A DNA stretch of 64,000 nucleotides from a virus (IMGVR_UViG_3300045837_000213:29432-93431), one strand, 5' to 3'; shown: positions 13,001 to 23,699, counted from the first letter of the stretch. Made by a program: numbers and translations. The notes: generated from the letters alone by a model not told the origin.

Positions 13001-13693
13001 CAACGTCGTCGTGAAGGTCGAAGTGCCGGCCGCGCCCGACCAGTCGAACCTGACCGAGACCGCCGCCGCCGCCGAGTAGAAAAAGTTGAGGCGGTAAGCA
13101 GCGCCGTTGCCGACGACGCCGTTGAATTGCAGCGACGCGTTCAGCCCCATCGAGACGGCCTTGCCGCCCGACGCCGCGGCGTCCGTGATCGTGGTCGCGC
13201 CGCCCGCCGGGGTGTTCCCCACGTATTCGGCCTCGTATGAGCCGAAGGCTTCGGGGATGCCCAGTTGCGGGCGGATGTCGTAGATGAGGTCGGCGTCGGC
13301 GTAGAGCGCGAGCAGTTCGCACTCGGTGTCGGCGAACATGATGCCGATGTCGGCCTCGTAATTGTCGTTGATGATTTGGGTCGAGCGCGCGCCCTTGCCC
13401 GACCCTTGCGTCTCGGTCGTCGTCGTCTGGAATTTCCTGATGTCGCTTAAATAGACGACGTTTCCGGCGATGCGAAACCCGTGCGCGCTCCCGTCGGGCT
13501 GCACGCCCCCATAAACCAGCGGGATCATCGAGCCGTATTCGCTATCCTGTATCTGAACAGAGCCGGAGAGTTGGCCGCGCTCCTGGGCTTTCGGCTTCGG
13601 CGTTAATAAATAATTTAATGTGAACTCCGCCGCTGAGGTTGCGGCTGCGACCGCAGCAACGAGGAGTATACTTCCTGAGATCGGATCGGCCAT
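10088..13693 (-). CDS. tail tip / host-specificity protein (GTA-like), with a CBM-like YEAE insert
   Basis: YGSMIPLVYG...RIAGNVVY, PAYKGRCYLVLE and RVPNFT motifs; follows DUF2460-DUF2163-NlpC. Confidence 0.85.
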   Translation of the reverse strand: MADPISGSILLVAAVAAATSAAEFTLNYLLTPKPKAQERGQLSGSVQIQDSEYGSMIPLVYGGVQPDGSAHGFRIAGNVVYLSDIRKFQTTTTETQGSGKGARSTQIINDNYEADIGIMFADTECELLALYADADLIYDIRPQLGIPEAFGSYEAEYVGNTPAGGATTITDAAASGGKAVSMGLNASLQFNGVVGNGAAYRLNFFYSAAAAVSVRFDWSGAAGTSTFTTTLNSTGGVYALGYFSAPFALASGALNTIKVTNLSSTTLLLDKLTVSVPGVTGAVNPTPVTPPTINHLAPPSPLDPVYRDNPAANFSIVPAPDTTGMVSATVVGGAFSALRFYPGNEAQLPDPIIDAYWQTQFPVEYGSGLPVAPAYKGRCYLVLERFNLTNYQRVPNFTAVLRSKSIITAQAVLDDLAVRSGALTADYDFSALSSLYVRGMAVTQPASLKQIAAQTLQIRWGFDFAHIGGAVTAVLRGGAASYHVPPDHLGFGAQKAGGDSQSNDAPKLVRTSVKLNDVELPRRIDLTAYDPNAEFMNVTRSWMRDETTSQTPQQATTLMALSPDEVAAVARRLGETAWTEGRYAVEFDLPHQYLVATAATVLELDDGDTTYTVRVSERTGPVPGSLAFKGVFVAGAQYHEPVNLLPPTWTPPAVFFPPTLVGQFAETDYLTAEDAATGKEGYYVGVASYEQAPFRGCAVNVDRGAGYRKECDLTRYACVGVCATTLAATNTGSETIDADIYGTVQPTASFTDADIAAGLGRLMVGSERLQYKTATQLGGYANRWRFSNLVNRAQDQTAMSGHSSSERLLVLDDALKFLPVDASEALVARDHKFVAAGADIATVPATSYTFQADAFLPQPSNLKLTRLDASNGSPLTASWDKGRRGSLGPGGVAEVYRVRVFNGATLIRTHYVETGYSEPLAWQYLFGTSSIASVAEDGTLSTAGDATHTCDFQAGQIIYGDSLVHFTLGTHYPPLQFRLVGATVACGRDTATNEIVAPDHYWQNGDQVVFNSASPLSGAYYVVNATEGRFQIALIPNGTPVSLSGTPASFTMSYPALVPSPAFCSLDAVVASGVLYLRPCSVAFDSSKRIAVAGTPCAIEVASGVIRFYVGDLSKPIFVANVSPVRWPYQAQATVGQLSGEAQDALQARVDHTQARSFTYTRAMQQQDFNTGGGGTIPSALTVEVCEMFDGSPGLASTATG

Positions 13694-13903
13694 TTTGTGA
13701 GAAAAAGAAAAATGCCAGTGGGCAGACGTAGAGGTCTGCCCCCGCTGGCATTTTCGAGGTTCCGTTTTTTCCTTGATTATAGGTCGCGGTTCGCCGTCGC
13801 GGCCCGATCAGGAGTGACGCGCGTTGCGCGCGCTGTTAATACCATGCATTATAGCCGCGCCACTTGTCAATTTGTTTCTCACGAATGGTAAAGGAGGCGA
13901 AAA

Positions 13904-14356
13904 ATGACGCGAATTTTTGCGATGGCCCTACTTTTCTCAGCCTTCGCCCTGGCGCATGGCGCTCCGCAAGTCGCCGACAGGCCAGCAGGTAAGGCCACGG
14001 TCTATTTTTACAGGCTCAAGGAGTCGGGGCCCTACATCAAGACCAAGACGAGTGTTTACTGCGACGATGAAAAGCTGGCGGAGATAGGGAACGAGAGATA
14101 TTTCGCCGCCATGCTCGAACCCGGCATTCACACGTTCAGGTCAACAGATAAGCAGAGCGGCATCGAGAAAGAATTGAAGGCTGGCGAGGTCTATTATGTG
14201 AGAATCGAAATGAATTTGACCCGGATTAAATTATTCCGCAAGCCACCTTTCAGGGTGGCGACCGTCGAGCCTGAGCAGGGTAAGTATGAGGTAAAGCGAT
14301 TGAAGCCCATAAGTGAAGGTGATGTTAAGAACCATGAGAAGGTGACATTGCGGTAA
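13904..14356 (+). CDS. DUF2846-like secreted/envelope protein (moron)
   Basis: Signal peptide; ATVYFYR...LEPGIHTF...LKAGEVYYVRI; low GC; AAGGAGG RBS. Confidence 0.7.
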   Translation: MTRIFAMALLFSAFALAHGAPQVADRPAGKATVYFYRLKESGPYIKTKTSVYCDDEKLAEIGNERYFAAMLEPGIHTFRSTDKQSGIEKELKAGEVYYVRIEMNLTRIKLFRKPPFRVATVEPEQGKYEVKRLKPISEGDVKNHEKVTLR

Positions 14357-14596
14357 TTACAATTTAGGCTCGCGCTCGTGGACGTATCTCTCAAGGCAAG
14401 TGTAGCCGTCCGCTTTGGCTTGTGCGGCGTAGCCCCTGAGCCTGGCGATGATCTGCTCCGGCGTGCCCCGCGTCGTGTCATTCAAGATCGCCGCCGCCGA
14501 GAGCACGTCACCCCGCGTAAACTCGAACTCGTCTATGACGAGGAGTAAAGCGTCCTCCAACTCCGGCCTGCCCGTGTAGTAAAACCCCCCGCTCAC
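14357..14596 (-). CDS. hypothetical protein
   Basis: GTGA overlap with the upstream HTH gene. Confidence 0.55.
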   Translation of the reverse strand: MSGGFYYTGRPELEDALLLVIDEFEFTRGDVLSAAAILNDTTRGTPEQIIARLRGYAAQAKADGYTCLERYVHEREPKL

Positions 14597-14805
14597 TTCT
14601 TCCCGCCTTTCTTTGTTGATGGCCGCCCGCCCTTATCAGGCGTGAACTCTTGAAGGTCGCGGCGTGAGATGAATTTCTTTCCCGCGATTTCAATGAATGG
14701 GAGTTTACCTTGTCTTACTAGATGGCTAATCGCCTGTTTGGTAGTGCCGCGCTCTTCCGCGGCCTGCGTGATTGTAAGGAGTTCTTCGGGGTCTATTTTC
14801 ACCAT
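14593..14805 (-). CDS. helix-turn-helix DNA-binding protein (excisionase/MerR-like), probable cassette regulator
   Basis: LLTITQAAEERGTTKQAISHLVRQGKLP; basic GGRP tail; start chosen downstream of a -10 box. Confidence 0.8.
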   Translation of the reverse strand: MVKIDPEELLTITQAAEERGTTKQAISHLVRQGKLPFIEIAGKKFISRRDLQEFTPDKGGRPSTKKGGKK

Positions 14806-14811
14806 ATACCT

Positions 14812-14932
14812 ATTATACATACCTTTTGCCGGATGACAATATGTTATGCAAATTAAATATGCGGCTTGGCAATAAATCTCTTGCCTTCCGACAAAAGGTT
14901 ATTTATAATCCTTTTGTCGCTAGACAAAAGGA
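14812..14932. promoter_or_regulatory. divergent sigma70-type promoters with repeated operator-like motif
   Basis: + strand TTGCCT(14881)-17-TATAAT(14904); - strand TTGTCA-16-TATAAT (14839 to 14812); four CCTTTTGYC/GACAAAAGG copies. Confidence 0.7.
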
Positions 14933-14945
14933 AAGGCGGGCGAAC

Positions 14946-15074
14946 ATGGAAGACAAGAAAGAGCAGAAGCAGGAGACGCCGGAGGAGCGGGCCGAGCGGC
15001 AGGAGCTTAACCGGCGGATGTTCGAGTGGTTCTACGGCTACTGCGGCCAGATGGAGACGACGGTTCTATGTTAA
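14946..15074 (+). CDS. small hypothetical protein
   Basis: First ORF after the promoter; purine-rich RBS. Confidence 0.45.
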   Translation: MEDKKEQKQETPEERAERQELNRRMFEWFYGYCGQMETTVLC

Positions 15075-15427
15075 GGAAATTTCGTCCCATTACGCTCATC
15101 ACCCCTTTACAGGCGGCCACGCTTCTCGGCGTTGACCGCGCGGAACTCTTCAGGCGTTCGGGAGTCGCGGCGCACCTGGCGAAGGTGCGCCAAGGGAAAC
15201 GCTTCTCTTTCGTCCTCGAAGAAGTCGAGGCTCTCAGAAAGGAGTTACTTATGGATTACGTGATTCTATTGGCCCGCGACCCAAGCTCGCTCGCCTCTCA
15301 GGTAAACGACCTTATCAAGCGCGGGTGGCAGCCTCAGGGCGGCGTCGCCGCGAGCGAAGTTCACGAGGAAGGGACGGCGGCAGCGACGCAGTGGGCGCAG
15401 GCGATGGTTAAGCCCCAGTCGGAGTAA
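15068..15427 (+). CDS. HTH-like domain in frame with a DUF1737-like domain (internal start at 15251)
   Basis: QAATLLGVDR; AAGGAG before ATG 15251; VNDLIKRGWQPQGGV. Confidence 0.6.
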   Translation: MLRKFRPITLITPLQAATLLGVDRAELFRRSGVAAHLAKVRQGKRFSFVLEEVEALRKELLMDYVILLARDPSSLASQVNDLIKRGWQPQGGVAASEVHEEGTAAATQWAQAMVKPQSE

Positions 15428-15458
15428 ACGAACATTCCTCAGGAAGGGAGAGGGATTC

Positions 15459-15872
15459 ATGGCACAACGGGAAAGCACGGACGATATGTATTCATTACTC
15501 AAGAGGCGTTTCGACTGCTCGGAGCGGGCCGCGCTCGTCAGGCGGAAATTCGAGGTGCTGACGGTCGGGCGCGTCTCTTACCTGATTCAGTCAATCGTCT
15601 CCGAGGAGCAGGACACCTTCAAAGAGAGGTTCAACCGCCCGATCACCTTCGAGCAGGCGAAGGAGTTGGCGTCGCGGCTCCTGACGGGCGACTTCGGCGG
15701 CGGCGACGGGCAGATTCACGCCCTCATCGAGCTAATCGTCGGGATCGCCTACGAGGAGGATCACGTCGAGCGCGAACGGCTTGCGATGAGCGCTATCCGC
15801 GAGGCGTTCTTTTTCTCGGAGGCCCACGACGAAGCTTTGAACCAATTTTTCCATTGCGGGCCGAAGCAATGA
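15459..15872 (+). CDS. hypothetical protein
   Basis: GGAGAGG RBS; coupled to the HNH gene. Confidence 0.65.
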   Translation: MAQRESTDDMYSLLKRRFDCSERAALVRRKFEVLTVGRVSYLIQSIVSEEQDTFKERFNRPITFEQAKELASRLLTGDFGGGDGQIHALIELIVGIAYEEDHVERERLAMSAIREAFFFSEAHDEALNQFFHCGPKQ

Positions 15873-16174
15873 GGCGAAGATTGACTCAGGCGGAAAAGTT
15901 GCGACGGCTCTTCCAAAGGCGTCGTATGGCTACGGCCCGGCGGATGCTACGCCGGGCCGCGTCATACGGCGTAAGGGCCGAACATGTGACCCTCGACGAG
16001 ATCATCGAGCGCGACGGAACGCGCTGCCACCTTTGCGGCTTAGAAACAGACGTGGACGATAGGACTCACGACCACGTTGTGCCTCTCGTCAGGGGCGGGG
16101 AGCATACGACTATCAACTTACGCATCGCCCACAGGCGGTGTAATTCAATGAAGGGCGGTAAGAGTCACGCCTGA
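15869..16174 (+). CDS. HNH endonuclease
   Basis: RDGTRCHLCG...DHVVPLVRGGEH...NLRIAHRRCNSMKG. Confidence 0.9.
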   Translation: MRRRLTQAEKLRRLFQRRRMATARRMLRRAASYGVRAEHVTLDEIIERDGTRCHLCGLETDVDDRTHDHVVPLVRGGEHTTINLRIAHRRCNSMKGGKSHA

Positions 16175-16193
16175 TTCTAAAACGAGTTTTCTT

Positions 16194-16273
16194 GGGCGGG
16201 CATGGCTCGGTGAGGTAGGGCAACGCATGGAACGGTTTGGCCCGGCGCAGTATGGCCTGGCAAGGCATGGTTC
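16194..16273 (+). repeat. GGY-NN pentamer array 1 (16 units; putative guide RNA)
   Basis: GGGCG GGCAT GGCTC GGTGA GGTAG GGCAA CGCAT GGAAC GGTTT GGCCC GGCGC AGTAT GGCCT GGCAA GGCAT GGTTC. Confidence 0.9.
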
Positions 16274-16288
16274 AAACGCAAAAGGAGC

Positions 16289-16918
16289 ATGAGAATGTCA
16301 AACATCGTCAAGGCGAAAATCACGATCAGGGGTATGCGTCCGCTCTTACAACATCATTTCGGGCCGGACGCGTTGCCTTTGGAAAAGCAGGAGAAAGACG
16401 GCGTGGCGGGGAACTCGCCCAACGAGTGGCGGAAGACGGCGATGGTCACTAAAGACGGCCAGCTTTACCTTGAGCCGACCTACGCCTTTGCCACAATCCG
16501 CGACGCGGCGAAGTACACGAAAAAGGGGAGAGGCTCACTCCAAACCGCCGTCGCCGCCACCCTTCAAGTGCTGGACGACAGGATTTTGATTGATAGGTTT
16601 TTTCCGGGCTTCCCGAACGGACATGCCTTCGACATCCAGAAGGTCGAGCCGCCTTCGCTCGACAGGGAGCTTCCGGTTTACCTCGACGTGCAGTCTGTGA
16701 GGAATCCGACCACCAAAGCCCGCAACGTCAGGTACAGGGTGGCCGCATCCTCCGGCTGGTCGTGTTCGTTTACGATCATGTTCGACAAGACAGTCGTTGA
16801 CCGTAACCAGATGCAAGCTGTCCTTAATGACGCCGGCACTCTCGTCGGTATTGCCGACGGCAGAAGCGTTGGGTTTGGCAGGTTTTCCGTTGAAGCTTTC
16901 GACTTCTTAGAGTCTTAA
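16289..16918 (+). CDS. stand-alone Cas7/RAMP-like RNA-binding protein
   Basis: N-terminal strand ITIRGMRPLL; WSCSFTI; C-terminal Gly-rich loop GIADGRSVGFGRF; AAGGAG RBS (start 16289 or 16295); no other cas genes in the window. Confidence 0.8.
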   Translation: MRMSNIVKAKITIRGMRPLLQHHFGPDALPLEKQEKDGVAGNSPNEWRKTAMVTKDGQLYLEPTYAFATIRDAAKYTKKGRGSLQTAVAATLQVLDDRILIDRFFPGFPNGHAFDIQKVEPPSLDRELPVYLDVQSVRNPTTKARNVRYRVAASSGWSCSFTIMFDKTVVDRNQMQAVLNDAGTLVGIADGRSVGFGRFSVEAFDFLES

Positions 16919-16921
16919 CGC

Positions 16922-16987
16922 GGTGAGGCGGGGCAGGGTTCGGTATGGCGGGGCTTGGCGGTGGCCGGGCTTGGCGAGGCAAGGTCA
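16922..16987 (+). repeat. GGY-NN pentamer array 2 (13 units; putative guide RNA)
   Basis: GGTGA GGCGG GGCAG GGTTC GGTAT GGCGG GGCTT GGCGGT GGCCG GGCTT GGCGA GGCAA GGTCA. Confidence 0.9.
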
Positions 16988-17057
16988 CATACTGAAATCT
17001 GCTTCGGTCGCTCCACGGTCGAGGGCTTCGAGTTCATAGATTCATAAAGTTCCACTC

Positions 17058-17144
17058 GGCTTGGCTGCGGCTTGGCTGGTCATGGCAGGCTTCGGCTCGG
17101 TAGGGCAAGGCGATGGCAGGTTTGGGCTTGGCTAGGCGAGGAAC
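17058..17144 (+). repeat. GGY-NN pentamer array 3 (17 units; putative guide RNA)
   Basis: GGCTT GGCTGC GGCTT GGCTG GTCAT GGCAG GCTTC GGCTC GGTAG GGCAA GGCGAT GGCAG GTTTG GGCTT GGCTA GGCGA GGAAC. Confidence 0.85.
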
Positions 17145-17146
17145 GA

Positions 17147-17443
17147 ATGCCCAAGAAGCGACAGCCGCGCGAAATCTGGCTTAAGACGAAGCGCAGAATC
17201 TACGAGCGAGACGGGGGCTTATGTCAATACCCGTCTGGCAAGCATCCTGTCGCATTTGAGGAATCACATTGCGACCACATCCAGAGCGGGAAGCGAGCAA
17301 CGAACGCCGATAGCAACCTCCGAACTCTCTGCCGGATGCATCACGTCTTGAGAGCAGATAAGCGGCACAGGGGGCTAGTTGCCGCTGCCCTCCGAGATGG
17401 TATTATTGATGCCGGCTGGCGCAGTCAGGTATGGGAAGATTGA
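17147..17443 (+). CDS. HNH endonuclease
   Basis: RDGGLCQYP...HCDHIQSG...NADSNLRTLCRMHH; GAGGA RBS before MPKKRQ. Confidence 0.85.
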   Translation: MPKKRQPREIWLKTKRRIYERDGGLCQYPSGKHPVAFEESHCDHIQSGKRATNADSNLRTLCRMHHVLRADKRHRGLVAAALRDGIIDAGWRSQVWED

Positions 17444-17452
17444 ATTTCACGG

Positions 17453-17522
17453 GGCATGGCAGTGTTCGGCTAGGGTAGGTTAGGTTCGGCAAGGCGTGGC
17501 TCGGTAAGGCGTGGCAAGGAGA
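17453..17522 (+). repeat. GGY-NN pentamer array 4 (14 units; putative guide RNA)
   Basis: GGCAT GGCAG TGTTC GGCTA GGGTA GGTTA GGTTC GGCAA GGCGT GGCTC GGTAA GGCGT GGCAA GGAGA. Confidence 0.9.
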
Positions 17523-17553
17523 AAGGGCGGATGAACTCCGCCCTTTCTATTTT
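17520..17553 (+). terminator. intrinsic terminator closing the RAMP/HNH operon
   Basis: AGAAAGGGCGGA-TGAAC-TCCGCCCTTTCT followed by ATTTT. Confidence 0.85.
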
Positions 17554-17637
17554 GAAGTGATCGGGGCGCGTTGGCTATGGCGAACCCGCGCCCCTCCGGT
17601 GATAAGAAAATGCCAGCACAACCTTACCACCAAAACT

Positions 17638-18120
17638 TCACACGTCTTCTAGCGCGGCTATTTCGCGGACTCGGAACGCCGAAACATTAAAAATCGGATC
17701 AGTCCAGCGGCCTTCCGTCACACACCGCGTGGCGCGATAACGGTAGGCGTGAACGCAGCGCAGATTGTCCACCTCGTTAAGCGTCACGACTCCACAATGC
17801 TTTGCCGGTTCATTCAACCTATAGCAACGGGTCACTACATCGCCGGGCCTTGCGTCCCGCCAATGTTGCAGCCTCACCATGTGCTCGGCGAGTTTCGTAT
17901 CTAACAAGTCGCCTTCGGGAACGATATGGTATTCATAATCGTGTAGCTCGAAACCGCAGATGTCTGCCGCCGCCAGCAATACGCCCAAACAATCAAAGCC
18001 GACATCGCGCGAGCGACCCCGGTAGGCATACGGCGAGCCGACGAGGGAGCGCGCCGCGGCGACGAAGGCCGCGCGCAGCTCGTCCGCCGTCGGGTTAGGT
18101 GTGAGGGTTATTTCGGCCAC
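17638..18120 (-). CDS. NlpC/P60 tail-associated peptidase
   Basis: AARSLVGSPY...GFDCLGV...KHCGV...VHAY; GTG start overlapping the DUF2163 stop. Confidence 0.85.
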   Translation of the reverse strand: MAEITLTPNPTADELRAAFVAAARSLVGSPYAYRGRSRDVGFDCLGVLLAAADICGFELHDYEYHIVPEGDLLDTKLAEHMVRLQHWRDARPGDVVTRCYRLNEPAKHCGVVTLNEVDNLRCVHAYRYRATRCVTEGRWTDPIFNVSAFRVREIAALEDV

Positions 18121-18920
18121 GAGTAGAGTTTGTTTCTGCCGGGGATGGCCGGCTCGCCGCGGAAGAATTCTGCCCGCCCCTTCTTGATGCAGGCGGGGAA
18201 GGTGTGCGCGCAGCCTTCGGAGAGGACGACCGTGTCGCCTATGGCGACGGCGTGCCTCATGTTCTCGACGAGCTGCACGGTGAGCGTCCCGCCCGACTGA
18301 GAACTGTTGCTGATCTGACCCGACAGGCCGTTGTTCGCGCCGGACGTGAAGGTGATCTTGCCGCGCTGGTAGTAGTTGTCTTCCGGCTCGGTGAGCGTAA
18401 ACGTCACGACGTCGCGCGCGGTGAAGCCGGTCACGGTCGCCGTCGCCTTGTTGGGCGTCGCGCCGCACTGTGTCGAGCCGAAACCCGTGCGGCACGTGTC
18501 CTGGTAGGTGTCCCCGACCGGCTGGTTGAAGAGGAGCGCCACGTCGAGGATTTCGCACTTCATCGCGCCGGCGTCATAGACGACCGAGTTGAGCACCCCG
18601 CGCCACGTCTCCTCGACCGTCCCCGTGTCCCAGCGGTACTTCCTGATCTCGACGCGCGCGCCGTCCCACTTGCCGCCCAACAGGTCTTCCTTCGTCACCC
18701 CGGCTGCGCTCATCGAAAGCCCGATCTCCATGTTTCCGGGTTCGAGGTTTTCGACCTGCTGCTCCTGCGAGGGGCGCAGGTCGGCGACCGCGTATGTGAC
18801 TCCCGCGTAGGTGACCGGGCGCGTCGCGCTCGTCACGTCCACGCCCGAACCGTCCAAGGCGATCAGGCGCCAGAGCGTCGTGTACCGGGAGAGCTGCGTG
18901 ATGTCTATGGTCGCGGGCAT
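18108..18920 (-). CDS. DUF2163 / BR0599-type tail hub protein
   Basis: CRTGFGSTQCG, FTSGANNG and GCAHTFPAC...FRGEPAIPG motifs. Confidence 0.85.
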   Translation of the reverse strand: MPATIDITQLSRYTTLWRLIALDGSGVDVTSATRPVTYAGVTYAVADLRPSQEQQVENLEPGNMEIGLSMSAAGVTKEDLLGGKWDGARVEIRKYRWDTGTVEETWRGVLNSVVYDAGAMKCEILDVALLFNQPVGDTYQDTCRTGFGSTQCGATPNKATATVTGFTARDVVTFTLTEPEDNYYQRGKITFTSGANNGLSGQISNSSQSGGTLTVQLVENMRHAVAIGDTVVLSEGCAHTFPACIKKGRAEFFRGEPAIPGRNKLYSWPK

Positions 18921-18934
18921 GAGGGAACGGCGGG

Positions 18935-19017
18935 TGGTATCAAACCGGCATCAAACTGGTATCAAACTGGTATCAACCAAGGTTTATCAAGAGAGCTTTA
19001 TCAACATTGGTTGATAC
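18935..19017. repeat. 11-bp tandem TGGTATCAAAC repeats plus further TATCAA sites
   Basis: Four tandem units at 18935-18978, two TTTATCAA, one inverted copy at 19007-19017. Confidence 0.8.
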
Positions 19018-19671
19018 TCATTCCCGGTCTTCTATCAGCAGAAGTTCGGGCTGCTCGCCGAGCGCCTTTTTGGTCGAGACGGCGAGCTTAAACAACTCCC
19101 AATCGACCTCGTCGTCCTTGAAGCGGACGGGCACGTAGAAATTCCCGTCCCACGTCGGAGCTGCCGCCGGCGGCGAGGTGAACGTCACCAGCCCCGTCGT
19201 GTAATCAATCGAGTAGCCGGAGGTGACGAGCGCGTTGGAGTCGTAGATGAGTACCGTGCCCGATTGAGGGCGAGTGATCTTGCGCGCGTGCGTGCGGTAG
19301 GAATTCGAGTAGAGCTTTTGCAGTTGGAAGACGGTCGTCGAGCCGCCGTAGCTCTCCGCGACGCCCTGCTCGAAGCAGCCGCCCGAATTCGGTATCACGT
19401 CCTGCGTGTGAATGACCGAATAGTCCGACCAGTCGGTCAGCAGGAAAGAGATCTCCGGCCCGTTGCAGGCGTAGAAGAAGGCGCGCACCAGGCGCACGTG
19501 GTCGAGCGTGCGGATGCCCGGCGTGCAGTCGAACGTGTGGCGCGAGTCCTGCCACAGCGGGGTGCGTACCTCGACGCCCGACGTGCCCTCCTGGATGTCG
19601 GTCGAGAACTGCACGCCGCCGCCGATCTTCTGCACGTTGTTTAAGGGGAAGACAACGGGATCCACAGCCAT
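19018..19671 (-). CDS. DUF2460 (TIGR02217-like) distal tail protein
   Basis: SGVEVR..LW, FLLTDWSDY, FQLQKLY and FYVPVRF motifs. Confidence 0.85.
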   Translation of the reverse strand: MAVDPVVFPLNNVQKIGGGVQFSTDIQEGTSGVEVRTPLWQDSRHTFDCTPGIRTLDHVRLVRAFFYACNGPEISFLLTDWSDYSVIHTQDVIPNSGGCFEQGVAESYGGSTTVFQLQKLYSNSYRTHARKITRPQSGTVLIYDSNALVTSGYSIDYTTGLVTFTSPPAAAPTWDGNFYVPVRFKDDEVDWELFKLAVSTKKALGEQPELLLIEDRE

Positions 19672-19700
19672 CTCAAATCACCTTCATGCGTTTGTATGCA

Positions 19701-22700
19701 TTAAGCGGGTTGGAATTGGAGGAGCTGCGCGCGGGCGGCGCGCCCGATCTGGCGGCCCGTCTTGCGCGCGCGCCCGCGCCCGGCTGACGTGTCCTCGTCG
19801 GCGCGGACGAAGACCTGCACGGCCCCGACCGAGACGCCGCCGCCGAAGGAAGAGCGCGACGCGTAAGACGGCGGCGTGTAGCCGGAGGCGAAACCGCCCG
19901 CGGCGAACGACCCGCCGCTGAGGCCCGTCATGCCGAGATAAGCCGCGAGCAGTTGCCTCATGCGACCGCGCTGCGCCGGGTCGGTCGTCAAGACGACCTC
20001 GTCGTAGCCGCCCTCGGCCACGCGGATGAAGCGCCCGCCCGGTCGCGCGCCGAAGATGCCGCCCGACGCGGCGTAGCCCGACGACGTGTCGGGATTGATG
20101 CCCGTCGGGTCGTCGGCCATCGTGCCGCCCGACGAGTCGTGCGGCTTGAAGAGTCCGTTGGTGAGTCCCGAAATGAAGCCGATGCCGGCGGCGGCGAGCA
20201 AGCCTTTCCAGAACGACCCTTGCGCCGCGCCCGCCGCGAGAACAGCCGCGATCGAGAGCATCGTCGAGACGATTGACTGCCCGACGCTCATCAGCGTCTT
20301 CGACTGCGCCTCGCCGGTCTTGCCGATCTGCGCGACCGAATTCTTCCACCCGTCGTTGATGGCCGTCGTGGCGGCGTGCCCCGCGCTTGAGACCGCTGAG
20401 GCGTCGGCCTTCTGAGAGTTGTTGTTGCCGCCGAGGTTGAAGAGTCGGCTGATCATCGCGCCGAACAGGCCGAAAGGCCCCAGCGCGCTCTGAACGCCGC
20501 TCTGCTGTCTCGGCTGTTGCGTCGTGCCCGTCGCCGAGCCGGGCAGCGGCGTGTTCGTCAACTGTCGGAGCAACGTCATCAGCTTCGATTCGAGCAGGTT
20601 CTCTTCCATCTTGATAATCATGTTGAGGAAGTCCTGCCCGATCTGCTGGAACATCGCCTTCCAGCCCTTCGTCCGAAGGGTCTGGAGCGCGCCGTCGATC
20701 AAGGAGATGGCCTTGTCGGCCATCTGCTTGAGCCGGTCGTTCTGCTTGGCGATTAAATCGTCCAACAATGCCAACTGACGGACGTTAGAGGATTGGCGCA
20801 CCGCCTCCATCTCGTCATCAAGGGCCTTCAACTTTTCGAGTTTTTTAACTCCGTCCTGTTCGGTCGCCTCAGTCGTCTCGCGCTCAAGTTGTAGCTCGCG
20901 TAACTTTCTCTCCTGCTGCAACTGCTCGCCTTCGAGGTCGAACTGGTACTGCTTCTGCCAGAGCGCCTGCTTGTTCTTACCCGACGCCTCCATCACCTTC
21001 AACAGCGCTTCCTGCGCCGAGCGCTGGTCTTCGGCGGTCGCGTCGGTGATCTCGGCGAGAGACTTCCTGTAGTTCTGCAACGTCGAGAGGTCGTCGGCGA
21101 CCGCCGTCTGCTCGTCCTTGTTGAATTGGGCGAACGCCTGCTTGCGTTGCAGGAAGAACGCCTTGATCTGGTCGATGGCCTCCTGCGCGGCCTCCGGGTT
21201 CGACGCGTTGGCGAGGATGGTCTTGAACGCGTCCTGCATCCCCTCGCTGTTCGTCGCGTTCACCGCGTCGTTGACCGCCTGCGAGATCATCTCCGCGAGG
21301 TCGAGGTCGGGGCCCGAGAGCGCCGACACCTCGCCCGCCCCGCCCATCGCGTGCGTGAGCGCGCCTTCGAGGACTTTGCCCTGCGCCTCGGCGACGGCGC
21401 CTAAGGCCGTGAAGCGCGCGCGCATCGCGGCGACGTGCGTCGTCGTTCCCGCCTCGATCTGGAGCTGGAGTTCCGCGTCCTGCGCGCGCTGCGCCTCTTC
21501 GAGTAAAGAGACCGCCGATTGCGCGAACTTCTGCTGTATGTCATAGCGGTGTTGTTCGCCCTCGGCGGTGTACTGCGAGAGTTTGTCCTGGTGCTCGCGC
21601 TCGGCGGCCTGCTCGCGCTGGCGGATGTCTTTGAGCTTAACGTCGCGCTTCGCGCCGTCGAGTCCGGCGGCGGCCGCCTCTTCCGCCTTGAAGCCGGCCC
21701 GCACGGCCTTGTAGCGCTCGTCTTCGAGTTGTTTGAGCGTCGAGACGTAGGACTCGTAATCGGTGAGGTTCTGGTCGAGGAAGCGCTTGGCGATCTGGTT
21801 GCCCTGCTGATAGACCGACTCTGCCTCGCGCAAGTCTATCTGCGCTGATTCCAGCGCGGCGTCGGCCATCTCGTTGCCGGCCTTGCGCCCCTTGCGGCCG
21901 CCGCCCGACTTCTCGCCCATCAGCCCGGAGACGTGTTTCGCATAATCATCTTGCGCCTTCTTCGTCGCGGCTTTGACAGCGGCATCGGCCTGCATCAGCC
22001 CGAGCATGAAAGGCGACGGCGGCTGCGCCAGGCCCCGCGCGAGCGCCGAGCCGACGCCCGCGTTGCCGCGCGCGTAATAGTCCTGCGCCGCCCTCTCGCG
22101 CATCGCGTATGGCGCGGTGAATTTGCCGCCCGAAGCGGCGCGCTCTTCCGACGTGCGCCCGTCGCCCGACGCGTAACCGCTGACCGCCTGAATGACCGAG
22201 AGTGCCGCGCGCCACGCGACGGCCACCTCGTGCGCCTTCTCGATGACGGCCAGCGCGACGCCGCCGACGATCTGCCCCCACGTCCTGAAATCGTCGCCGT
22301 TCTGAGAGAGCCACTTCGAGAGGTTGTCGAAGAGCGCCTCGAAGATGGGCATGACCTCCTCGCCCACCTTGACTTTCATCACGTCGAACTGCGCGGCGAG
22401 CAACTTCTGCTTGGCCTCGAACTCCTGCGCCGCCGCCGCGTCCTTGTCCGACAGCACCGCGCCGAGGTCTTCGAGGTGCTTGATGAACGTCGGCAGGTCG
22501 CCGTGCGCCTGCGCGATGATCGCCAGCATCGCCTTGCCGCCGCGCCCGAACGCCTCCATCGCCAGTGCCGTCTTCGTCGTGCCGTCAGGCAGCTTCGACA
22601 GGACGGTGAACATCCCTTCGAGCGCCTTCTGGTTGTCGCGCACGTCCACGTTCGCGTCCTTCAAAACGCGCGACAGTTTCGACGACTTCTCGGCGCCGGC

Positions 22701-23699
22701 CTCTAACTTCTTCTCGAAGATGCCGAGGCCTGCGCCGATCTGATTGAACGAGACGCCGACCTGTGAGGCGGCCACGTCGAGCGCGTTCAGTTCGTGCGCC
22801 GTGTAGCCCGTCTCCATCGAGAGGTCTTTGTATTTCGCCCCGACCTCGGCGGCTGAACTGGCGAGCTGATAAGCGCCGTACACGACGCCGACAGACGCGG
22901 CGGCGACCGCCGCGAGTGCCGCGACGACGAGGAGTAGCGGCCCGGAGACTTCGCCCAGCATGGCGACGAGGCCGCCGCCGGCGGAGGCCAGCCCGGCCAG
23001 CCCCTGCTCTGCCGTCGAGGCCGCGCCCTTCAGAGACGCCAGTTCCTTCTCCGTGTCGGCGATCTGAACTTTCGTGTTGCCGAGCGCGCGCGTCGCGCTG
23101 CGCTCCATGTTCCCGAACTTGGCGGCGGCGCGGTCGACCTCGTTCGCCAACTCCTGCGAGATGCCGCCCGTCGCGCCGAGAATGAGCGCGTCACGTTCTT
23201 TCGCGCCCGCCGTGTTGTTGTAGTTGCGGAGAAAATCGGAGGAGAAGCTCTGCCCCGTGCGGCGCTGGAGGTCGTCGACCAGCCGCTGCGTGCCGCCGGC
23301 GAAGTCCGACGTGATGAGCGACGCCTTGGCGCGCAGCGAGGCGAGTTTCGATTCGAGGCCGACTATCGACATACCCAACTGCTCGACCTGCTTGCGCGCC
23401 GACACAATCGCCGTCTCGCTGGCCTGCCCCGCCGTGAAGAAGCTCTGTCGCAGGGATGAGGCGCGCCGCTCGACCTGCGCGAGCACGCCGCCGACTAAGG
23501 GCACGCGCTGGAGTATGCGCGCCGTCGCCTGGTCGAGTCCGGTGAACGCCTGCGAGCCGACGCGCGAGTAGGTGCGGTCAATTCTGGCCGCCGCGTCGCC
23601 GAGGCTGCGCTCCATGCGCGCGAGCTTGGCCTCGACCGGCGTGATGTCGGCGTCGGCGGTGACGAGGATCGAACCTATTTCGTTACCGGCTAAGTCCAC
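19701..23699 (-). CDS. tape measure protein
   Basis: 1332 aa, Ala-rich helical; C-terminal AEGGYDEVV...FAAGG; position in the tail operon. Confidence 0.9.
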   Translation of the reverse strand: MDLAGNEIGSILVTADADITPVEAKLARMERSLGDAAARIDRTYSRVGSQAFTGLDQATARILQRVPLVGGVLAQVERRASSLRQSFFTAGQASETAIVSARKQVEQLGMSIVGLESKLASLRAKASLITSDFAGGTQRLVDDLQRRTGQSFSSDFLRNYNNTAGAKERDALILGATGGISQELANEVDRAAAKFGNMERSATRALGNTKVQIADTEKELASLKGAASTAEQGLAGLASAGGGLVAMLGEVSGPLLLVVAALAAVAAASVGVVYGAYQLASSAAEVGAKYKDLSMETGYTAHELNALDVAASQVGVSFNQIGAGLGIFEKKLEAGAEKSSKLSRVLKDANVDVRDNQKALEGMFTVLSKLPDGTTKTALAMEAFGRGGKAMLAIIAQAHGDLPTFIKHLEDLGAVLSDKDAAAAQEFEAKQKLLAAQFDVMKVKVGEEVMPIFEALFDNLSKWLSQNGDDFRTWGQIVGGVALAVIEKAHEVAVAWRAALSVIQAVSGYASGDGRTSEERAASGGKFTAPYAMRERAAQDYYARGNAGVGSALARGLAQPPSPFMLGLMQADAAVKAATKKAQDDYAKHVSGLMGEKSGGGRKGRKAGNEMADAALESAQIDLREAESVYQQGNQIAKRFLDQNLTDYESYVSTLKQLEDERYKAVRAGFKAEEAAAAGLDGAKRDVKLKDIRQREQAAEREHQDKLSQYTAEGEQHRYDIQQKFAQSAVSLLEEAQRAQDAELQLQIEAGTTTHVAAMRARFTALGAVAEAQGKVLEGALTHAMGGAGEVSALSGPDLDLAEMISQAVNDAVNATNSEGMQDAFKTILANASNPEAAQEAIDQIKAFFLQRKQAFAQFNKDEQTAVADDLSTLQNYRKSLAEITDATAEDQRSAQEALLKVMEASGKNKQALWQKQYQFDLEGEQLQQERKLRELQLERETTEATEQDGVKKLEKLKALDDEMEAVRQSSNVRQLALLDDLIAKQNDRLKQMADKAISLIDGALQTLRTKGWKAMFQQIGQDFLNMIIKMEENLLESKLMTLLRQLTNTPLPGSATGTTQQPRQQSGVQSALGPFGLFGAMISRLFNLGGNNNSQKADASAVSSAGHAATTAINDGWKNSVAQIGKTGEAQSKTLMSVGQSIVSTMLSIAAVLAAGAAQGSFWKGLLAAAGIGFISGLTNGLFKPHDSSGGTMADDPTGINPDTSSGYAASGGIFGARPGGRFIRVAEGGYDEVVLTTDPAQRGRMRQLLAAYLGMTGLSGGSFAAGGFASGYTPPSYASRSSFGGGVSVGAVQVFVRADEDTSAGRGRARKTGRQIGRAARAQLLQFQPA

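Follow-up and report, generated by a model that had tools for sequence, protein, structure and literature searches.

VIPR systems and the locus in a soil phage tail gene cluster

VIPR (Viral Interference Programmable Repeat) systems have been described as consisting of a RAMP protein, Vipr, and of vrRNAs built of alternating GGY and NN, whose NN pairs read double-stranded DNA with one base in three skipped (bioRxiv 10.64898/2026.04.26.720920). The skipped base falls at the wobble position of the target codons (bioRxiv 10.64898/2026.04.26.720920, 10.64898/2026.04.26.720927, 10.64898/2026.10.15.759431), which is said to block synonymous escape, so that a target must change its protein (10.64898/2026.10.15.759431, Discussion). 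The genetic code leaves a loophole in this scheme: in Leu, Ser and Arg codons, positions 1 and 2 can be altered with the protein kept as it is, and because the wobble base is unread, such a change of codon family is the only silent difference a guide could see. Here we analyze a 64,000-nt stretch of a virus record (IMGVR_UViG_3300045837_000213:29432-93431; hereafter the window) that carries, judging from its sequence, an HNH-associated VIPR system inside the tail gene cluster of a soil phage. The carrier differs from its own guides mainly through the six-fold codon loophole, while its cassette-free relatives do not. A preliminary description of this DNA had claimed that the unread wobble base blocks ordinary synonymous escape and that the guides effectively read protein; the skip at position 3 holds here, but the idea itself had already been published. 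What we did not find in the three VIPR preprints (10.64898/2026.04.26.720920, 10.64898/2026.04.26.720927 and 10.64898/2026.10.15.759431) is that six-fold codons offer a silent escape, nor the way in which self and non-self are laid out at an HNH-type phage locus.

The window comes from a 93.4-kb virus record with 64% GC, whose sequence was found only in soil metagenome DNA runs. The VIPR cassette (13694-17637, 3.9 kb) extends from the stop codon of an NlpC/P60-like tail gene to the start codon of a tail protein gene and is an exact insertion between both. Its vipr gene (16295-16918, + strand) codes for a 207-aa RAMP protein that matched PDB 36pp, 'SUSP1 Vipr protein', both as a single sequence (phmmer, E = 1.3e-6) and as a profile of 20 Vipr homologues (E = 2.8e-15, G-loop included). 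With tblastn, a Vipr about 30% identical over 94-97% of the protein was found in 117 isolate phage records, mostly from Escherichia, Salmonella and Shigella phages and including several Felixounavirus, and 1572 Vipr homologues were found in metagenomes. The 207-aa protein belongs to no Pfam family, and Rfam gave nothing above gathering scores in 13500-18000.

The other hallmarks of VIPR systems are also present. Tandem GGY/NN arrays, of about 9-16 units in described systems, lie beside vipr and on its strand; there are four of them, with 13-17 units, they are the only such arrays in the whole 93.4-kb record, and arrays of this kind likewise accompany vipr in six related loci (L001, L019-L023). 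An accessory (vap) gene also stands beside vipr. This is HNH endonuclease 2 (HNH2, 98 aa; 17147-17443, + strand), which we assign as the vap gene because copies 52-82% identical are conserved downstream of vipr in the same six loci; its match to Pfam HNH is weak (E = 0.0086; 16.6 bits, under the 21.4-bit cutoff). Using base identity as the score, with a threshold of 0.8 as in published VIPR work, the carrier's own sites reach 0.64-0.77, and published surveys found no self match of at least 0.8 either (10.64898/2026.04.26.720920, Methods). Furthermore, the 1-nt skip is seen in silico, and with each of the four guides it is the wobble base that is skipped, in the carrier's sites as in those of the relatives.

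When compared to the type II VIPR of Escherichia phage SUSP1 and of a Pseudomonas fulva prophage (10.64898/2026.04.26.720920; structures in 10.64898/2026.04.26.720927), the locus shares a RAMP-type Vipr about 200 aa long, vrRNAs built of GGY/NN pentamers (9-16 there), the wobble-aligned 1-nt skip, the lack of any self match of at least 0.8, and targets in rival mobile elements that include rival vipr genes. It departs from the SUSP1 family in its Vipr, which is about 30% identical, in its partner, an HNH nuclease here and the DNA-binding Vap1 there, and in its array ends, which carry a short GCAA-GR motif; a conserved tail structure resembling the SUSP1 pseudoknot was not seen, though no search was aimed at one. 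Also unlike type II systems, its targets have orthologues among the structural genes that neighbour the cassette in the carrier itself. A predicted nuclease accessory is likewise a feature of VIPR types III and V, and HNH is among the Vap domains named for VIPR systems (10.64898/2026.04.26.720920); however, those types are described as enriched in host defence islands and as acting for the host, whereas this locus sits in a phage tail cluster and appears to be aimed at related phages. Class 1 CRISPR-Cas effector complexes, with their Cas7 backbone, resemble this arrangement in that RAMP protomers line a guide RNA and interrupt its pairing periodically. In contrast to them, no CRISPR repeat-spacer array occurs in the window, where Tandem Repeats Finder detected no repeat family of CRISPR period and the arrays present consist of 5-nt units, and VIPR targeting works, according to published work, with no protospacer adjacent motif. 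VIPR tells self from non-self by target sequence alone, and therefore the codon choice of the carrier matters.

Guide matches in the carrier and in its relatives

Each guide was read as NN plus one skipped target base per unit. Array A1 (16194-16273, + strand; 16 GGYNN units) has a 14-unit core predicted to target the N-terminal region of rival tail protein genes. A2 (16922-16987, + strand; 13 units, one of 6 nt) is predicted to target the G-loop codons of rival vipr genes, A3 (17058-17144, + strand; 17 units, two of 6 nt), through a 13-unit core, rival tape measure genes, and A4 (17453-17522, + strand; 14 units), through an 11-unit core, the NlpC/P60-like gene of relatives. The cores of A1, A2 and A3 are the arrays minus their last 2, 3 and 4 units, respectively. 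On the DNA of relatives the 1-nt skip gave identities of 0.86-0.95, while skips of 0, 2 or 3 nt gave at most 0.77 and shuffled guides at most 0.82. Other skip lengths and guide orientations returned only arrays matching themselves or scores at chance level.

The units at the 3' end of the arrays mostly fail to match, and the proposal that they form a handle is backed by a conserved motif: GCAA followed by a unit starting with GR closes nearly all arrays in the window and in L001 and L019-L023, that is, in seven loci. This sequence pattern supports the last array units being a constant handle. In some places the GCAA-GR motif overlaps the ribosome-binding site of the next gene.

On the carrier's own DNA, the best matches of the full arrays A1, A2 and A3 in the window lie at 13437-13483, 16856-16893 and 20740-20789. 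At each of these three places the base left unread is the third of a codon in the annotated frame, as had been claimed before. The A1-facing self site occupies codons 73-86 of the tail protein gene (13437-13477, - strand), where 8 of 14 units match and four mismatches are Leu/Ser/Arg family switches. The A2-facing site is in the vipr G-loop (16856-16888, + strand; 7 of 11 units match, two mismatches being family switches), and the A3-facing site in codons 975-987 of the tape measure gene (20740-20777, - strand; 8 of 13 units match, three mismatches being Leu family switches). The count given in the preliminary description, nine Leu/Ser/Arg family switches among the 14 mismatched core units of A1-A3, was reproduced exactly. 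One of the nine is not carrier-specific, since A1 unit 13 (guide AGN against CGC) mismatches every relative as well. For A4 no target was found in the window; at the site orthologous to its target in relatives (NlpC-like gene, 17920-17952, - strand) 5 of 11 units match and the carrier differs by amino-acid replacements, six in 11 codons, not by silent switches.

The codon choice at these sites departs from that of the genes in which they lie. At 9 of the 11 Leu/Ser/Arg sites that are compatible with the guide, the carrier uses the other codon family, against 3.75 expected from the genes' codon usage (P = 1.8e-4), and wherever the guide has the common family, at eight sites in all, the carrier has the rarer one (P = 7e-7 from codon usage). 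When the self sites were scored by the amino acids compatible with the codon box of each NN pair, A1 scored 12/16, A2 9/13 and A3 11/17, values that were reached by 0, 3 and 0 of 100 shuffles, respectively. Additionally, the guide windows are in the top 1.7% and 1.4% of the windows of their genes for carrier-specific family switches.

Relatives were found by protein searches with the tail protein and the tape measure protein. Five have no cassette at the junction; we call cassette-free those with no cassette between the NlpC-like and tail genes and no array in the 4-24 kb fetched. Among the relatives for which flanking DNA was fetched too, nothing or very little separates these two genes (they are adjacent, for example, in L004 and L006). 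At every site the guides fit the relatives better than the carrier. The base identity of A1 is 0.75 at the self site and 0.86 in four relatives, that of A2 is 0.73 at the self site and up to 0.91 in rival vipr genes, and that of A3 is 0.77 compared to 0.92 and 0.88 in relatives. For A4, the identity is 0.64 at the orthologous carrier site (hand count) and 0.95 in the NlpC-like gene of two relatives, where 10 of 11 units match. In addition, the peptide spelled by A2 occurs exactly in many Vipr homologues.

The codons themselves follow the same division. At the A1 site, all four relatives that keep the residues use CTC, TCC or TCG, and CGC, whereas TTA, AGC and AGG stand in the window; facing A3, relatives use CTC or CTG and the window TTG or TTA. 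The preliminary description had named cassette-free relatives with the same TTA/AGC/AGG codons as the finding that would speak against self-sparing; these relatives hold instead the CTN, TCN and CGN families that match the guides. The higher identity in relatives (0.86-0.95, compared to 0.64-0.77 for self) and their guide-matched families thus support the interpretation that codon-family differences spare the carrier.

Peptide patterns run against IMG/VR detected no relatives of the tail protein or tape measure genes, and tolerant target patterns found there no targets of A1 or A4 and nothing for one guide of L023. The tolerant A3 pattern gave seven IMG/VR matches, all with just nine specified units and in unrelated phages of lower GC, which were taken as chance.

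Possible origins of the difference between self and relatives

The explanation that we consider probable is that the HNH-associated VIPR aims its four guides at rival relatives, and that the carrier's orthologues stay below the threshold mainly through six-fold codon switches. By analogy with characterised systems, Vipr protomers would coat each vrRNA, holding the GGY triplets and presenting the NN pairs, and these pairs, going by the published biochemistry, would bind double-stranded DNA with every third base skipped. The guides would mark rivals of the same phage family at the tail protein gene (A1), the vipr G-loop (A2), the tape measure gene (A3) and the NlpC-like gene (A4), and the HNH protein would cut or otherwise act on the bound target. 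The carrier orthologues remain below threshold because 4-6 of 11-14 units differ from the guides. We infer that selection favoured such differences as immunity alleles in linkage with the cassette, which is supported statistically and not proven. The six-fold codon loophole bears on evasion or allele-specificity of programmable VIPR tools.

Several observations weigh against this explanation. The comparison rests on 2-5 relatives per site, none of which has the same cassette. The two switches facing A2 could stem from the AGR-rich codon usage of the cassette, as AGR makes up 10 of the 15 Arg codons of vipr in spite of the 64% GC of the genome. In the target windows, the codon positions that are read show a rise of about 2-fold, and so do the unread ones, and therefore selection on the read bases is not singled out (family switches force some third-base changes); for the same reason, recoding in place looks the same as import of a divergent patch by recombination. 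The exact unit matches at self sites (8/16, 7/13 and 8/17 for A1, A2 and A3) are not above those of shuffled guides (maxima 7-9). Furthermore, L003, with no array in the 20.5 kb fetched, has switch clusters at tail codons 413-420 and 614-618 (clustering P = 0.004), and in the window a cluster in tape measure codons 927-936 is faced by no resident guide.

The shuffle result would be expected if the arrays merely resembled these genes by chance and had no targets in them. This is hardly credible, as the amino-acid-compatible scores exceed all shuffles for A1 and A3, and orthologous sites in independent metagenomic relatives reach 0.86-0.95 with the 1-nt skip only. Another reading is that the partial self matches are functional, the guides weakly binding the carrier's own tail genes and tuning their expression. 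The self identity of 0.73-0.77 is indeed above the shuffled-guide mean of 0.66-0.72 and published type II VIPRs are transcriptional silencers, but relatives match far better than self at every site, A4 is devoid of any self match and the conserved partner is a nuclease gene, which makes such tuning very improbable. Neutral divergence followed by survivorship, in which the carrier alleles drifted and self-matching guides were lost with no selected recoding, would account for the equal rise of third and read positions inside the windows. It also draws on the fact that family switches are the sole synonymous changes visible at codon positions 1 and 2, and on a background in which close relatives already switch family at 13-18% of conserved Leu/Ser/Arg sites. 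It has more trouble with the rank of the guide windows among carrier-specific switches and with the eight out of eight sites in the rarer family given above; moreover, the carrier diverges most where the relatives are most alike. We regard neutral divergence with survivorship as quite unlikely.

The clusters that face no resident guide point to a different history, in which the tail genes were recoded under attack by VIPRs of other phages, and the cassette or its guides came later to an already immune genome. With lineages pooled, lineage-specific family switches cluster strongly (18 close pairs compared to 6.0 expected, P < 0.0002), L003 included; such clusters are general in this phage group, so that rival VIPRs stay in contention with self-avoidance as the source of the pressure. 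Mutual targeting among VIPR systems is known from the literature (10.64898/2026.10.15.759431). On the other hand, the recoded sites coincide with the resident guides, in a genome of 93 kb none of them is more than 3.2 kb from the cassette, and no foreign guide from six other loci matched these sites; we hold this history to be rather unlikely. Clusters of six-fold codon switches would be a sequence signature of past VIPR conflict in phage genomes.

The position of the targets relative to the insertion suggests a further possibility. Measured from the cassette, the A1 site is 217-257 bp beyond its left end and the site orthologous to the A4 target 283-315 bp beyond its right end; the A3 site is 3.1 kb away. 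Every target is in, or at the edge of, a patch that has diverged in the carrier alone, largely silently. In the tail protein gene (Phage-tail_3, PF13550; 10088-13693, - strand), codons 1-100 are unusually divergent from the closest relative, with a nucleotide identity of 0.65-0.75 (0.82 elsewhere) and an amino-acid identity of 0.75-0.90; in codons 61-100 the identity to L006 is 0.90 for amino acids and 0.75 for nucleotides, the latter being 0.82 in the rest of the gene. GC at third codon positions (GC3) is 0.50-0.65 in carrier tail codons 1-60. In the NlpC/P60-like gene (17638-18120, - strand), codons 41-160 have a depressed GC3 of 0.61, compared to 0.79-0.88 in relatives. A divergent patch specific to the carrier covers codons 925-987 of the tape measure gene (19701-23699, - strand), with the A3 site at its end; over this patch the carrier has an identity of 0.61-0.64 to two relatives, which share 0.88 with each other.

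Free-standing homing endonucleases of T-even phages, such as SegG and MobE, carry out intronless homing and cause marker exclusion. The cassette resembles them in placing a small nuclease gene between two conserved genes, which are neighbours in relatives, and in the unusually divergent flanks next to the insert; moreover, the cassette-free allele has predicted recognition sites within about 0.3 kb of the insertion point on both sides, and sequence differences at those sites would protect the carrier. The low, cassette-like GC3 and the excess divergence of the flanks give an indirect hint of biased inheritance with co-conversion in mixed infection. Unlike in those elements, recognition is predicted from the sequence to be by guide RNA and not by the nuclease protein. 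It is conceivable, though doubtful, that the cassette is an RNA-guided homing or poison-antidote element, a reading that agrees with the targets on both sides of the insertion, with a nuclease as partner and with the divergence of the flanks. Loaded with A1 and A4, Vipr would mark a cassette-free allele present in the same mixed infection at two places, about 0.2-0.3 kb to either side of the empty site, and with A3 at a third place 3 kb away; the HNH protein would break the marked DNA, and repair from the carrier would copy the cassette together with flanks containing the immune recoded sites. The silent Leu/Ser/Arg switches would then act as antidote alleles in tight linkage with the guides. 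Targets that flank the insertion site, together with an HNH partner, raise the idea that some VIPR cassettes may spread as selfish elements.

Other cassette genes and related loci

The cassette has a GC content of 0.562, compared to 0.67 in the flanking genes. The tail-gene DNA that abuts it on both sides (13514-13693, 180 bp, and 17638-18000, 360 bp) has a cassette-like GC3 of about 0.5-0.65, compared to about 0.8-0.9 elsewhere in these genes and in relatives. An HTH_17/Cox-like regulator (14593-14820, - strand; Pfam HTH_17, E = 1.1e-6) is transcribed divergently from the vipr operon, with promoter-like sites at 14812-14839 (- strand) toward the regulator and at 14881-14909 (+ strand) toward vipr; homologues of this regulator are found upstream of vipr in L021-L023. 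The cassette also encodes a DUF2846 protein whose N-terminus is signal-like (13904-14356) and, on the opposite strand beside the HTH_17 gene, an open reading frame of 79 aa (14357-14596). A first HNH endonuclease (HNH1, 100 aa; 15872-16174, + strand; Pfam HNH, E = 4e-9) precedes A1 and is peculiar to the window, related loci giving one weak match only. Reading of the sequence 3' of A4 revealed a hairpin and T-run extending to about 17556.

The spacer between A2 and A3 (16988-17057, + strand) contains a frame that reads as a Vipr-like C-terminus, the last 19 residues of a second Vipr followed by a stop. By its sequence this spacer looks like the relic of a tandem second cassette, whose vipr gene would survive here as its 3' end. 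Locus L001, which belongs to a lower-GC IMG/VR phage, still keeps such a tandem with both cassettes complete; its second, distant Vipr (L001:12925-14130, about 30% identical) lies 2 kb downstream of the first and has its own arrays and an HNH gene.

The unfaced cluster in the tape measure gene spans 20892-20921 and consists of four carrier-specific Leu/Arg switches in 10 codons, the densest cluster of the gene; it may be the footprint of another phage's guide. In the tail gene of L003 (L003:7058-10513), switch clusters occur at codons 413-420, 456-459 and 614-618 (window residue numbering). Between vipr homologues 82-84% identical, family switching at conserved Leu/Ser/Arg sites amounts to 45-48%, compared to 13-19% in tail genes; however, synonymous sites are nearer saturation in vipr (0.52-0.64) than in tail genes (0.33-0.41), and we draw no conclusion from this contrast. 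The guides of the six other VIPR loci gave no match of at least 0.84 in the window's genome or in its relatives. Near-self sites with family switches were also found in two of these six loci, L021 and L023. Lastly, the Vipr homologues of L019 and L020, 64-65% identical, are on contigs of Armatimonadota and Abditibacteriaceae metagenome-assembled genomes, and these contigs may hint at the host group of this Vipr clade.

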